Shown: one piece after another, positions 1-3,221 of the stretch | How the letters are laid out: each line of letters opens with the position of its first letter | Position numbering within the stretch: position 1 is the stretch's first letter | Origin: Escherichia coli | GTDB lineage: Bacteria > Pseudomonadota > Gammaproteobacteria > Enterobacterales > Enterobacteriaceae | Direction: 5' to 3' (one strand) | DNA: 3,221 bases | Assembly (NCBI RefSeq): GCF_003334255.1 | Contig: NZ_QOWU01000126.1 | Notes under the pieces: model-generated | What the model saw: only the letters and a program-made list of their open reading frames with translations | Told to the model about the DNA's origin: nothing | Databases searched by the model: none | Program-made: the position numbers and the translations under genes

Positions 1-77
1 AGTTATCGTGAGAGTAATTCATCGGCACGTTAAATCATATCAGGCGTAATACCACAACCCTTAAGTTAGCGCTTATG
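1..77. mobile_element. Terminal 77 bp of an IS186-like insertion sequence (IS4 family), element truncated by the window start; terminus at position 77
   Basis: Reverse complement of 1..77 reads CATAAGCGCTAACTTAAGGGTTGTGGTATTACGCC..., which matches my recollection of the IS186 terminal inverted repeat and adjacent sequence. The flank immediately outside (78..90, GGATCACTCCCCG) is GC-rich, the kind of target IS186 prefers. Identification is from memory, not a search. Confidence 0.7.
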
Positions 78-99
78 GGATCACTCCCCGCCGTTGCTC

Positions 100-252
100 T
101 TACTCGGATTCGTAAGCCGTGAAAACAGCAACCTCCGTCTGGCCAGTTCGGATGTGAACCTCACAGAGGTCTTTTCTCGTTACCAGCGCCGCCACTACGG
201 CGGTGATACAGATGACGATCAGGGCGACAATCATCGCCTTATGCTGCTTCAT
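100..252 (-). CDS. hokC: HokC (Gef) type I toxin, 50 aa small membrane peptide of the Hok/Gef family
   Basis: The last 50 codons of the 100..342 minus-strand ORF translate to MKQHKAMIVALIVICITAVVAALVTRKDLCEVHIRTGQTEVAVFTAYESE, which I recognise as HokC/Gef: one hydrophobic transmembrane segment and a short polar tail. ATG is at 252..250 and stop TAA at 102..100 on the - strand. An AGGAGA Shine-Dalgarno lies 8-13 nt upstream (revcomp of about 258..268). Confidence 0.9.
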   Translation of the reverse strand: MKQHKAMIVALIVICITAVVAALVTRKDLCEVHIRTGQTEVAVFTAYESE

Positions 253-309
253 TGCTCTCTTCTCCTTGACCTTACGGTCAGTAAGAGGCACTCTACATGT
301 GTTCAGCAT
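100..309 (-). CDS. mokC: MokC, 69 aa overlapping reading frame (modulator of killing) whose translation is coupled to hokC
   Basis: In-frame ATG at 309..307 extends the hokC frame N-terminally (MLNTCRVPLTDRKVKEKRA + HokC), with GAGG about 9 nt upstream. The ORF track's 80 aa version starts at a further upstream GTG (342), which I do not favour. The nested mok/hok arrangement is the established architecture of hok/sok loci. Confidence 0.8.
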   Translation of the reverse strand: MLNTCRVPLTDRKVKEKRAMKQHKAMIVALIVICITAVVAALVTRKDLCEVHIRTGQTEVAVFTAYESE

Positions 310-355
310 ATAGGAGGCCTCGGGTTGATGGTAAAATATCACTCGGGGCTTTTCT
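301..355 (+). ncRNA. sokC: SokC antisense RNA (antitoxin of the hok/sok type I system); ends approximate
   Basis: Lies antisense to the mokC translation initiation region (mokC ATG at 307..309, SD at about 319..322). A hairpin with stem 317..324 paired to 342..349 (8 bp including two G-U pairs in RNA) is followed by TTTTCT at 350..355, an intrinsic-terminator-like 3' end. The 5' end near 301 is from recall of the locus, not derived from the sequence. A TTGACC -35-like hexamer is at 266..271 but I could not find a convincing -10. Confidence 0.55.
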
Positions 356-408
356 CTATCTGCCGTTCAGCTAATGCCTGAGACAGACAGCCTCAAGCAC
401 CCGCCGCT

Positions 409-414
409 ATTATA
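409..414 (-). promoter_or_regulatory. Candidate -10 hexamer (TATAAT on - strand) for the mokC/hokC mRNA
   Basis: Revcomp of 409..414 is a perfect TATAAT, about 95 nt upstream of the mokC ATG and about 150 nt upstream of the hokC ATG, consistent with the long structured leader typical of hok mRNAs. No good -35 match at 16-18 bp spacing. Positional inference only. Confidence 0.3.
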
Positions 415-534
415 TCGCTCTCTTTAACCCATTTTGTTTTATCGATTCTAATCCTGAAGACGCCTCGCATTTTTGTGGCGTAATTTTTTAATGATTTAAT
501 TATTTAACTTTAATTTATCTCTTCATCGCAATTA

Positions 535-563
535 TTGACGACAAGCTGGATTATTTTTGAAAT
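535..563 (+). promoter_or_regulatory. Candidate sigma70-type promoter (TTGACG -35 at 535..540, 17 bp spacer, TGAAAT -10 at 558..563) in the AT-rich nhaA upstream region
   Basis: Hexamer match and spacing read directly from the sequence. nhaA is known to have two promoters (P1 NhaR/Na+-dependent, P2 stationary-phase), but I cannot assign which this is, if either. Confidence 0.25.
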
Positions 564-760
564 ATTGGCCTAACAAGCATCGCCGACTGACAACAAATTA
601 ATTATTACTTTTCCTAATTAATCCCTCAGGAATCCTCACCTTAAGCTATGATTATCTAGGCTTAGGGTCACTCGTGAGCGCTTACAGCCGTCAAAAACGC
701 ATCTCACCGCTGATGGCGCAAATTCTTCAATAGCTCGTAAAAAACGAATTATTCCTACAC

Positions 761-766
761 TATAAT
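761..766 (+). promoter_or_regulatory. Candidate -10 hexamer (perfect TATAAT) about 72 bp upstream of the nhaA start
   Basis: TATAAT at 761..766; the sequence 17 bp upstream (TAAAAA at 738..743) is a poor -35. Could be one of the two known nhaA promoters; not resolved from sequence. Confidence 0.3.
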
Positions 767-771
767 CTGAT

Positions 772-799
772 TTTAACGATGATTCGTGCGGGGTAAAAT
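772..799 (+). promoter_or_regulatory. Second candidate nhaA-proximal promoter (TTTAAC -35-like at 772..777, 16 bp spacer, TAAAAT -10 at 794..799)
   Basis: Hexamers read from the sequence; the predicted start would be about 30 nt upstream of the GTG. Weak -35. Listed as an alternative to the 761..766 element. Confidence 0.25.
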
Positions 800-823
800 A
801 GTAAAAACGATCTATTCACCTGA

Positions 824-829
824 AAGAGA
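824..829 (+). promoter_or_regulatory. Ribosome-binding site of nhaA (AAGAGA)
   Basis: Purine-rich AAGAGA sits 8 nt upstream of the GTG at 838. Confidence 0.5.
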
Positions 830-837
830 AATAAAAA

Positions 838-2004
838 GTGAAACATCTGCATCGATTCTTTAGCAGTGATGCCTCGGGAGGCATTATTCTTATCATTGCC
901 GCTATCCTGGCGATGATTATGGCCAACAGCGGCGCAACCAGTGGATGGTATCACGACTTTCTGGAGACGCCGGTTCAGCTCCGGGTTGGTTCACTCGAAA
1001 TCAACAAAAACATGCTGTTATGGATAAATGACGCGCTGATGGCGGTATTTTTCCTGTTAGTCGGTCTGGAAGTTAAACGTGAACTGATGCAAGGATCGCT
1101 AGCCAGCTTACGCCAGGCCGCATTTCCAGTTATCGCCGCTATTGGTGGGATGATTGTGCCGGCATTACTCTATCTGGCTTTTAACTATGCCGATCCGATT
1201 ACCCGCGAAGGGTGGGCGATCCCGGCGGCTACTGACATTGCTTTTGCACTTGGTGTACTGGCGCTGTTGGGAAGTCGTGTTCCGTTAGCGCTGAAGATCT
1301 TTTTGATGGCTCTGGCTATTATCGACGATCTTGGGGCCATCATTATCATCGCATTGTTCTACACTAATGACTTATCGATGGCCTCTCTTGGCGTCGCGGC
1401 TGTAGCAATTGCGGTACTCGCGGTATTGAATCTGTGTGGTGCACGCCGCACGGGCGTCTATATTCTTGTTGGCGTGGTGTTGTGGACTGCGGTGTTGAAA
1501 TCGGGGGTTCACGCAACTCTGGCGGGGGTAATTGTCGGCTTCTTTATTCCTTTGAAAGAGAAGCATGGGCGTTCTCCAGCGAAGCGACTGGAGCATGTGT
1601 TGCACCCGTGGGTGGCGTATCTGATTTTGCCGCTGTTTGCATTTGCTAATGCTGGCGTTTCACTGCAAGGCGTCACGCTGGATGGCTTGACCTCCATTCT
1701 GCCATTGGGGATCATCGCTGGCTTGCTGATTGGCAAACCGCTGGGGATTAGTCTGTTCTGCTGGTTGGCGCTGCGTTTGAAACTGGCGCATCTGCCTGAG
1801 GGAACGACTTATCAGCAAATTATGGTGGTGGGGATCCTGTGCGGTATCGGTTTTACTATGTCTATCTTTATTGCCAGCCTGGCCTTTGGTAGCGTAGATC
1901 CAGAACTGATTAACTGGGCGAAACTCGGTATCCTGGTCGGTTCTATCTCTTCGGCGGTAATTGGATACAGCTGGTTACGCGTTCGTTTGCGTCCATCAGT
2001 TTGA
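838..2004 (+). CDS. nhaA: Na+/H+ antiporter NhaA (388 aa, 12-TM secondary transporter), GTG start
   Basis: ORF 838..2004 translates to [41 protein letters not shown]..., which I recognise as E. coli NhaA essentially residue for residue. The protein is highly hydrophobic, and the conserved Asp163-Asp164 pair (IIDDLG, codons GAC GAT at 1324..1329) of the ion-binding site is intact. Stop TGA at 2002..2004. Confidence 0.97.
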
Positions 2005-2018
2005 CAGGACGGTTTACC

Positions 2019-2046
2019 GGGGAGCCATAAACGGCTCCCTTTTCAT
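2019..2046 (+). terminator. Intrinsic-terminator-like hairpin between nhaA and nhaR (probably partial, allowing read-through)
   Basis: GGGAGCC at 2020..2026 pairs perfectly with GGCTCCC at 2033..2039 (7 bp GC-rich stem, 6 nt loop ATAAAC), followed by TTTTCATTGTT from 2040. It starts 15 nt after the nhaA stop and ends before the nhaR SD. The short, interrupted T-tract suggests incomplete termination. Confidence 0.45.
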
Positions 2047-2052
2047 TGTTAT

Positions 2053-2060
2053 CAGGGAGA
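2053..2060 (+). promoter_or_regulatory. Ribosome-binding site of nhaR (AGGGAGA)
   Basis: Strong SD-like AGGGAGAGA ends 3-5 nt before the ATG at 2064. This supports ATG 2064 as the start rather than the TTG at 2046 used by the ORF track. Confidence 0.55.
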
Positions 2061-2063
2061 GAA

Positions 2064-2969
2064 ATGAGCATGTCTCATATCAATTACAACCACTTGTATT
2101 ACTTCTGGCATGTCTATAAAGAAGGTTCCGTGGTTGGCGCAGCGGAGGCGCTTTATTTAACTCCACAAACCATTACCGGACAGATTCGAGCGCTGGAAGA
2201 GCGCCTGCAAGGCAAATTATTTAAACGCAAGGGACGTGGTCTCGAACCCAGCGAGCTGGGAGAACTGGTCTATCGCTATGCCGATAAAATGTTCACCTTA
2301 AGCCAGGAAATGCTGGATATTGTGAACTATCGCAAAGAATCCAATTTATTGTTTGACGTTGGCGTGGCTGATGCACTTTCCAAACGCCTGGTCAGTAGCG
2401 TACTTAACGCCGCAGTGGTAGAAGGCGAGCCCATTCATCTTCGCTGCTTCGAATCCACCCACGAAATGCTGCTGGAGCAATTAAGTCAGCATAAACTGGA
2501 TATGATCATTTCTGACTGTCCGATAGACTCTACGCAGCAGGAAGGCCTGTTCTCCGTGAGAATTGGCGAATGTGGCGTGAGTTTCTGGTGTACAAATCCA
2601 CCACCAGAAAAACCGTTCCCGGCTTGTCTGGAAGAACGGCGACTTTTGATTCCTGGGCGACGTTCAATGTTAGGGCGCAAATTGCTTAACTGGTTTAACT
2701 CCCAGGGATTAAACGTAGAAATCCTCGGCGAGTTTGATGATGCCGCTTTGATGAAAGCTTTTGGTGCGATGCACAATGCAATCTTCGTTGCCCCAACGCT
2801 TTATGCATATGACTTTTATGCCGATAAAACTGTCGTAGAAATTGGTCGCGTCGAGAATGTGATGGAAGAGTACCATGCTATTTTTGCTGAGCGGATGATT
2901 CAGCACCCGGCGGTACAGCGAATCTGCAATACGGATTATTCTGCGCTTTTTAGTCCAGCGGTGCGTTAA
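2064..2969 (+). CDS. nhaR: LysR-type transcriptional activator NhaR (301 aa), Na+-responsive regulator of nhaA
   Basis: From ATG 2064 the frame translates to [53 protein letters not shown]..., which I recognise as E. coli NhaR. It has an N-terminal helix-turn-helix typical of LysR-type regulators and a C-terminal co-inducer domain. Stop TAA at 2967..2969. The ORF track's TTG start at 2046 adds 6 residues and overlaps the upstream hairpin, so I reject it. Confidence 0.96.
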
Positions 2970-2976
2970 TCGGCAG

Positions 2977-3001
2977 CTCCCCCAAAGTTAAGGTGGGGGA
3001 G
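2977..3001. other. GC-rich hairpin immediately downstream of the nhaR stop (no U-tract)
   Basis: CTCCCCCA at 2977..2984 pairs with TGGGGGAG at 2994..3001 (8 bp stem, 9 nt loop). No T-run follows on either strand, so it is not a canonical intrinsic terminator; it could be an RNA stability element or a rho-dependent termination region. Confidence 0.3.
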
Positions 3002-3144
3002 ATAGATTAGTTGTACATTACCACGATTTTGACTCGGCTCATTATTTGCCCGCTTGAGACATTGTTTCCATATGTACGCGGGCGAATAAATAGAGGAATC
3101 TGATTACTTCCTTCATGGGGATGCTGAAAAGAGTAGTAATTGCT

Positions 3145-3221
3145 GGTAATGACTCCAACTTATTGATAGTGTTTTATGTTCAGATAATGCCCGATGACTT
3201 TGTCATGCAGCTCCACCGATT
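3145..3221. mobile_element. IS1 terminus (terminal inverted repeat GGTAATGACTCCAACTTATTGAT and adjacent sequence), element truncated by the window end
   Basis: 3145..3167 matches my recollection of the IS1 terminal inverted repeat. The following sequence encodes the InsB C-terminus on the - strand (see next feature). The putative 9 bp target flank just outside the element is 3136..3144 (GTAATTGCT). Confidence 0.85.
3160..3221 (-). CDS. insB: IS1 transposase InsB, C-terminal fragment (partial, continues beyond the window)
   Basis: Minus-strand translation of 3219..3163 gives ...SVELHDKVIGHYLNIKHYQ followed by stop TAA (revcomp of 3160..3162), which matches the InsB C-terminus as I recall it. 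The ORF track did not list it because it is truncated at the window edge. Confidence 0.85.
   Translation of the reverse strand, partial: SVELHDKVIGHYLNIKHYQ

Follow-up and report, generated by a model that had tools for sequence, protein, structure and literature searches.

What does a short, wobble-containing hairpin do on the strand opposite the start of mokC, and for which of the two strands have its bases been kept? We address this question in a window of 3,221 nucleotides (nt) of Escherichia coli (i.e., the whole stretch of DNA analyzed, from contig NZ_QOWU01000126.1 of assembly GCF_003334255.1), which represents the hokC/mokC/sokC–nhaA–nhaR region and, from position 55 to 3221, matches MG1655 NC_000913.3 16706-19872 at 100% identity (a window position equals the MG1655 record position minus 16651). 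We hold with high confidence that window 301-356 (+ strand) is SokC itself, which belongs to the chromosomal hokC/mokC type I toxin-antitoxin locus as its cis-antisense antitoxin RNA, and that the hairpin at 313-353, together with the UUUUCUC at its 3' side, is both the intrinsic terminator of SokC and its only structural domain. That termination is intrinsic rather than a matter of end-trimming, and likewise all steps of antitoxin action, is deduced by homology with the Sok RNA of plasmid R1.

RefSeq places sokC (b4413) over window 301..359, in agreement with the initial annotation of this DNA, which had seen in the segment 301-355 the 3' part of sokC, antisense to the mokC initiation region. 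The sokC of the window is the same gene as that of E. coli K-12, where the SokC (sof) small RNA (sRNA) is known as the hokC (gef)/mokC antitoxin. The segment 301-355 (MG1655 16952-17006) is presumably the extent of an older sokC annotation. The hairpin is already known and already annotated, sokC being a textbook case of a type I antitoxin RNA whose ends have been mapped by experiment, and the results below are of little consequence for genome annotation, their modest value lying in the detail of wobbles and mismatches. In its general build the RNA is of the Sok type: it lies antisense to a hok-family leader over the mok start and next to a Hok/Gef toxin gene, it consists of a 5' tail and one stable stem-loop (reference RNAs have 55-67 nt and a tail of ~11 nt), it is made with defined ends according to the literature, and the leader opposite to it carries the tac, ucb, SDmok (the mok Shine-Dalgarno, SD) and dcb elements. 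What the locus lacks is an intact fbi at the 3' end of the mRNA, a point that concerns the toxin mRNA and not the membership of SokC.

The SokC hairpin and the 3' end of the RNA

The eight base pairs proposed in the initial annotation, between 317-324 (GCCTCGGG, also given as GCCUCGGG) and 342-349 (CTCGGGGC, also given as CUCGGGGC), are present exactly as read from the letters, including the two G-U wobbles (U320·G346 and G323·U343) and the UUUUCU that follows at 350-355. Both wobbles exist on the + strand only and turn into C·A mismatches on the complement, and the two strands fold very differently (RNAfold): the minimum free energy (MFE) of 301-355 is -21.6 kcal/mol on the + strand (shuffle mean -10.6, z = -4.73, 0/200 shuffles as good) vs -8.3 kcal/mol on the minus strand (shuffle mean -5.0, z = -1.70, 15/200 shuffles as good). 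A stable hairpin is thus found on the + strand, and only there is the structure far beyond chance. While the eight-pair core stands, the stem-loop as a whole is larger than had been claimed, reaching from 313 to 353 with paired segments 313-325/341-353 and 327-330/337-340, a bulged U326 and a 6-nt loop (331-336). Further wobbles are G330·U337 near the loop and G313·U353, G314·U352 and G316·U350 in the weak lower extension into the U-tract, and the core stem (317-349) contributes -16.9 kcal/mol. The 12-nt tail that precedes the stem is complementary to the mokC AUG and the second and third codons.

Published data define both ends of the RNA. Genome-wide 5'-end sequencing (PMC2912661) agreed exactly with the SokC 5' end, and in a Term-seq study of MG1655 (Adams et al. 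2021, PMC7815308, supplementary file 1) the dominant + strand 3' end lies at 17007, i.e., window 356, with scores of 66697.6 and 36222.8 in two condition tables and classed as the primary sokC 3' end, antisense to mokC. The RNA then terminates in ...GGGGCUUUUCUC-3', 7 nt past the last stem pair (C349). The initial annotation had put the end at 355, in the right place but 1 nt short of the mapped position, and the Term-seq end coincides with neither annotated sokC end (355 or 359), both of which deviate slightly from it. RNAs of the mokC/sokC locus have also been covered by published northern blots.

Such an arrangement has the hallmarks of intrinsic termination, as a stable, GC-rich hairpin stands directly before a U-rich tract and the 3' end falls inside that tract (~7-9 nt would be expected, 7 nt are seen). 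Canonical enterobacterial sRNA terminators likewise combine a GC-rich stem with a U-rich tract; unlike them, SokC has four consecutive U only, a bulged stem, several G·U pairs and a Rho-dependent backstop downstream. Homologues carry a comparable U-rich tract after the hairpin (TTTTCTCT, TTTCTTCT, TTTTATCT). Upstream of the 5' end, homologous loci keep TTGACC or TTGCCT at the position of the putative sokC -35 and have TAATCT or TAACCT at that of the putative -10, and the sokC -35 appears, from sequence comparison, to be positionally homologous to the R1 sok promoter. A consensus promoter and terminator scan of positions 1-900 called neither the sokC promoter nor the sokC terminator, a result that we judge uninformative rather than negative; we think that the scan probably missed the terminator since the U326 bulge breaks its rule of an ungapped stem and a limited loop size.

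Conservation of the stem and the role of its wobbles

The Sok-sense strand upstream of each hok was compared across 107 usable loci, of which species-representative genomes contributed 29 and viral contigs 80. They provided 47 distinct Sok regions and 26 distinct hairpins, the latter divided into a short class of the sokC type and a long class that has an upper stem inserted. The stem foot GCCUC.../...GGGGC is essentially invariant and the U-tract nearly so. An alignment of 15 sequences of the short class, among them an R1-type Sok that matches plasmid NC_004998.1 at 100% identity, bears out the covariation anticipated for this hairpin: standard pairs occupy 96.6% of alignment cells vs 39-53% when partners are slid by 1-3 columns, and three pairs change on both sides. 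G322-C344 becomes A-U in five sequences, G324-C342 becomes AU, UA or UG, and in Photorhabdus CGGG/CUCG is replaced by CAAA/UUUG. Owing to these compensatory changes and to a share of paired cells far above the slid controls, we consider the hairpin to be maintained by selection. The 5' tails of the homologues (equivalent to 301-316) are hypervariable except for a CAUA core; variable tails on a near-invariant stem foot would be consistent with paralogue-specific target recognition. For sokX, a paralogue in MG1655, Term-seq places the 3' end 6 nt beyond its homologous GGGGC, a position that fits a shared terminator design.

The asymmetry between strands is not peculiar to SokC. In 47/47 distinct Sok regions the Sok-sense hairpin exceeds its mirror in stability, by 8.9 kcal/mol on average (range 4.5-14.7), and the 26 distinct hairpins hold 88 G·U pairs in their Sok-sense MFE structures vs 8 in the mirror folds. 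A·C 1x1 mismatches, which would be pairable in the mRNA sense, are absent from the inside of Sok-sense stems. Given that the G·U pairs occupy 21 distinct stem positions in different hairpin classes, this pattern must have arisen repeatedly and is not one inherited accident.

What, then, do the same bases do in the mRNA? The left arm of the hairpin, read on the minus strand, constitutes the mokC SD (GAGGC, 321..317), with GAGG the complement of 318-321 and the mokC AUG that of 307-309, and the dual constraint postulated for this segment is therefore real. The mok SD of R1 is also GAGG, and in hok mRNAs ucb and SD are described as pairing in a closed, untranslatable form, the open, processed form consisting of tac/ucb and SD/dcb pairs (PMC9841398). 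Folded in isolation, the 153-nt hokC leader (402..250, minus strand) conforms to this scheme: its MFE structure is the open tac/ucb plus SD/dcb form at -53.6 kcal/mol, and the closed ucb/SD form, at -51.6, is 2.0 kcal/mol worse and becomes the MFE structure once tac is blocked in imitation of tac/fbi pairing.

Published mutagenesis of R1 bears directly on the wobbles. In a deep mutational scan, A106G in the SD and the opposing C74T in the anti-SD each abolish toxicity, and the authors explain that each adds a base pair that locks the mRNA in its closed form; of the seven anti-SD-stabilizing substitutions of that study (PMC9841398), these two were mapped onto the window. The R1 pair C74·A106 is the fourth of GCCCC/GAGGC and is homologous to G346/U320 of the window. 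When this pair was repaired in silico, the leader changed from open (wild type, -53.6) to closed with either substitution (U320C, -58.5; G346A, -56.4), and SokC 301-356 went from -21.6 to -24.6 (U320C) and -22.5 kcal/mol (G346A). Repair of the second wobble (G323A or U343C) brought the closed fold within 0.1 kcal/mol of the open one. It thus appears that the C·A mismatches are required by the hokC mRNA and that a wobble meets this requirement while leaving the bases of SokC paired. The initial annotation had concluded that selection acts on the structure in the antisense RNA and not in the mok mRNA; the first half of this statement is well supported (asymmetry in 47/47 regions, 88 vs 8 G·U pairs), but the mirror stem is the functional SDmok/ucb closed stem, and because mismatch repair abolishes toxicity in R1 and the modelled repairs flip the leader into its closed form, we regard both strands as being under selection.

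Could this amount to a rule? We raise, tentatively and with more doubt than conviction, the proposal that the asymmetry between G·U in Sok and A·C in hok mRNA is a recurrently evolved, family-wide design rule that has not been explicitly set out before. If it were true, wobbles would be the one solution by which a single DNA segment specifies both a strong terminator and, on its complementary strand, a marginal, switchable SD/anti-SD stem, and each toxin mRNA would have its open/closed balance adjusted through the number and position of the wobbles. Apart from this proposal, the wobbles of SokC are the counterpart of the C·A mismatches by which the closed stem of the toxin mRNA stays openable, and they link the published A106G/C74T mutagenesis of R1 to a sequence rule that holds in 47/47 distinct Sok regions. 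Our literature search, which did not reach the classic papers of the Gerdes laboratory, retrieved no paper discussing a wobble asymmetry of hok mRNAs, and the explicit family-wide statement that a G·U in Sok is an A·C in hok mRNA is possibly the only new element here.

Competing explanations and a proposed mechanism

Several points weigh against our reading of the hairpin as the intrinsic terminator and structural domain of SokC. The U-tract (UUUUCUC) is not only short but also interrupted, and the site is absent from the output of the consensus terminator scan. There is a Rho-dependent termination region ~30 nt downstream, at 388, PMC11441560 credits sokC with a Rho-dependent terminator, and Term-seq by itself does not distinguish true termination from a 3' end that has been trimmed as far as a hairpin. 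Further, the sequences behind the covariation and asymmetry counts are related paralogues and orthologues, so that these counts are not independent events, the energy gaps come from an isolated 153-nt leader and are model values only, and a repression of mokC by SokC at this locus was not found in the literature searched. The 356 end might, for instance, owe nothing to intrinsic termination, with Rho stopping transcription near 388 or beyond and 3' exonucleases trimming the RNA back to the hairpin. Such a route could draw on the Rho region itself (17039, + strand, score 3.45, PMC7815308), on the Rho-dependent terminator reported within sokC, from which, as is suggested there, readthrough could reach nhaA (PMC11441560), on the interrupted U-tract and the silent scan, and on a p19-captured double-stranded RNA (dsRNA) cluster at 16960-17328 (window 309-677), which suggests + strand RNA well past 356. 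We nevertheless rate it as unlikely, for a GC-rich stem of 13-17 bp directly before UUUU with an end 7 nt later is the usual geometry of intrinsic terminators, the U-rich tract beside the hairpin is conserved across the family, sokX ends at the equivalent position and the Term-seq peak is very strong. Moreover, the two routes are compatible, and partial intrinsic termination with a Rho backstop fits all data. With a Rho region so close downstream and sokC described as Rho-terminated, termination at 356 is probably incomplete.

The hairpin could also have been selected only as the SDmok/ucb closed stem of the mRNA, leaving that of SokC as its passive mirror. The mirror stem is indeed a documented functional element of hok mRNAs, it is adopted by the leader MFE structure when tac is blocked, and the invariant bases of the foot can be explained by the needs of the mRNA (the A of the SD, and the C of ucb that pairs with tac). 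But selection of this kind predicts G·U pairs in the mRNA sense and A·C in the Sok sense, and the opposite is observed at 21 sites, with 88 vs 8 G·U pairs and no A·C within Sok stems; besides, the Sok-sense hairpin is the stronger by 4.5-14.7 kcal/mol in 47/47 regions and the RNA ends just past it. On the asymmetry counts and the mapped RNA end we reject a purely mRNA-selected stem, which strikes us as highly improbable. Less credible still, to the point of being negligible, is a chance palindrome whose wobbles have no conserved role: nothing beyond the general frequency of small inverted repeats speaks for it, and it is refuted by the shuffles (z = -4.7, 0/200), by compensatory changes across genera, and by the annotation of an sRNA with mapped ends.

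Taking the hairpin as the terminator and structural domain of SokC, we can outline how the system may work, mostly by analogy with R1. RNA polymerase would start at 301, make the 12-nt tail and then the GC-rich stem, and release the RNA in the U-tract at 356, and free SokC would consist, like R1 Sok, of a 5' tail and a stem-loop. By analogy, the first pairing would be between the tail and the SDmok/dcb hairpin loop of processed hokC mRNA, the resulting duplex would spread over the mokC start codon and SD, blocking translation of mokC and with it that of the coupled hokC, and RNase III would cleave the SokC/mRNA duplex. Throughout, the G·U pairs would keep the SokC stem continuous (-16.9 kcal/mol, 317-349), and the C·A mismatches would hold the closed mRNA stem at about -7 kcal/mol, weak enough to give way once tac and ucb pair. 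The SDmok/dcb loop of the open leader fold reads CUGAACA (300-306, minus strand), of which CUGAAC (306..301) is exactly complementary to GUUCAG at SokC 301-306, and this complementarity fits the first contact between loop and tail described for R1. The CUGA of the loop conforms to the YUNR U-turn motif of the hok/sok literature. As for RNase III, the stability of the mokC transcript rises in rnc mutants, and RNase III-dependent dsRNA fragments have been reported from the mokC/sokC locus.

The likeness to R1 Sok (hok/sok, parB) is close but not complete. Both RNAs lie antisense to the mok translation-initiation region, and R1 Sok is a 64-nt RNA with one stable stem-loop and an 11-nt single-stranded 5' tail that first contacts a loop in processed hok mRNA (PMC1635323), to be compared with the 12-nt tail and one stem-loop of SokC. 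The stem foot GCCUC/GGGGC and its U·G fourth pair are identical, and R1 Sok shows the same asymmetry (hairpin -21.8 vs mirror -9.9 kcal/mol). It differs in its 39-nt hairpin, its poorer U-tract (UAUCUUCUU) and its tail sequence. Since the tails differ, cross-repression between SokC and R1 is not to be expected; chromosomal Sok RNAs did not silence R1 hok. The settings differ as well, with R1 a plasmid post-segregational killing system and hokC a chromosomal gene thought to have been inactivated by an insertion sequence (IS) element.

Annotation of the locus and its surroundings

The coordinates of the features discussed are collected in Table 1. HokC comprises 50 amino acids, and its homologues carry Pfam PF01848 under the source names Hok/Gef or MokC.

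Table 1 Features of the window around sokC (TSS, transcription start site; positions in the window)
Feature	Position	Strand	Basis and remarks
hokC (b4412)	100-252	-	RefSeq
mokC reading frame	100-309	-	RefSeq annotation and open reading frame list; hokC nested inside
hokC mRNA 5' leader	250..402	-	tac 402-396, metastable hairpin region, ucb, SDmok, dcb, to hokC AUG
Putative sokC promoter -35, TTGACC	266..271	+	read from sequence; 17 nt upstream of putative -10
Putative sokC promoter -10, CACTCT (A at position 2, T at position 6)	289..294	+	inferred; 6 nt before TSS; weak consensus match
sokC, ncRNA b4413	301-359 (MG1655 16952..17010)	+	RefSeq
SokC antisense RNA, ~56 nt	301..356	+	annotated/sequenced 5' end to Term-seq 3' end
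5' tail GUUCAGCAUAUA, single-stranded, presumptive target recognition	301..312	+	12 nt unpaired in MFE and centroid folds
Stem-loop, read as terminator	313..353	+	strong core 317-349; weak lower extension 313-316/350-353
mokC Shine-Dalgarno GAGG	318..321	-	sequence; 8-11 nt upstream of mokC AUG 309..307
U320 of invariant U320·G346 wobble	320	+	UG in 15/15 aligned; complement is A of mokC SD GAGG
G323 of G323·U343 wobble	323	+	alignment: GU 8, AU 3, CG 1, other 1, gap 2
ucb/anti-SD box GCCCC of hokC leader	345..349	-	leader folds, Rfam consensus, R1 literature; equals hairpin right arm
G346 of invariant U320·G346 wobble	346	+	complement is C of ucb/anti-SD GCCCC
U-rich tract UUUUCUC	350..356	+	sequence; ends at Term-seq 3' end
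Rho-dependent termination region, reported center MG1655 17039	388	+	PMC7815308, supplementary file 2: Rho score 3.45, p 2.9e-14
nhaA	838-2004	+	RefSeq
nhaR	2064-2969	+	RefSeq

One database match at this locus calls for caution. The Rfam family RF01794, named "sok antitoxin (CssrC)", matches at full length with 118.3 bits, over 402..250 of the minus strand, i.e., the hok-mRNA strand, ending at the hokC AUG. Its 157 positions have as consensus the open hok leader (tac/ucb, target hairpin, SD/dcb), and the orientation is that of the mRNA at four other loci as well, including an R1-type plasmid. As the match spans the mRNA from its 5' end to the hok AUG, RF01794 marks the target region of Sok and not the 55-64 nt Sok RNA, and strand calls taken from its matches point the wrong way for the sRNA.

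Some further signals were seen around the hairpin. A perfect TATAAT at 403-415 (minus strand), 6 nt upstream of the leader 5' end G402, is in the right place for the -10 of the hokC mRNA promoter; the consensus scan provided no good -35 for this promoter. Downstream of SokC, both strands appear to be transcribed well past its 3' end, towards the nhaA promoter region. At the hokB locus of MG1655, Term-seq data show a very strong minus-strand 3' end (1492156) inside the mirror hairpin of the hokB leader, antisense to sokB, which could be a product of RNase III or other processing; the published Term-seq passages searched show no equivalent minus-strand 3' end at hokC. A 17-codon open reading frame that starts within SokC and runs past its end (313-381, + strand, with GGAGG at 313-317 and ATG at 328) was set aside as probably due to chance, as it is not conserved in the Sok homologues, whose loop and arm sequences differ.

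Downstream of hokC, the IS186/IS421 of the source strain has the reverse orientation to that of MG1655, a difference by which sokC is untouched. The end of the element lies at window 80, 19 nt beyond the hokC stop (100) and at the same site as in MG1655; window 1-54 differs from MG1655 and matches the other end of the IS, i.e., the IS is inverted. According to the literature, IS insertion disrupts fbi and the hok loci of K-12 are inactive, for which reason the antitoxin function of SokC may be vestigial in the source strain, its identification as SokC being unaffected. Window 1-840 is 100% identical to strain 720632 (NZ_CP025842.1), with the transposase gene on the opposite strand, and the inverted IS has either inserted independently, into the same hotspot, or undergone an inversion.

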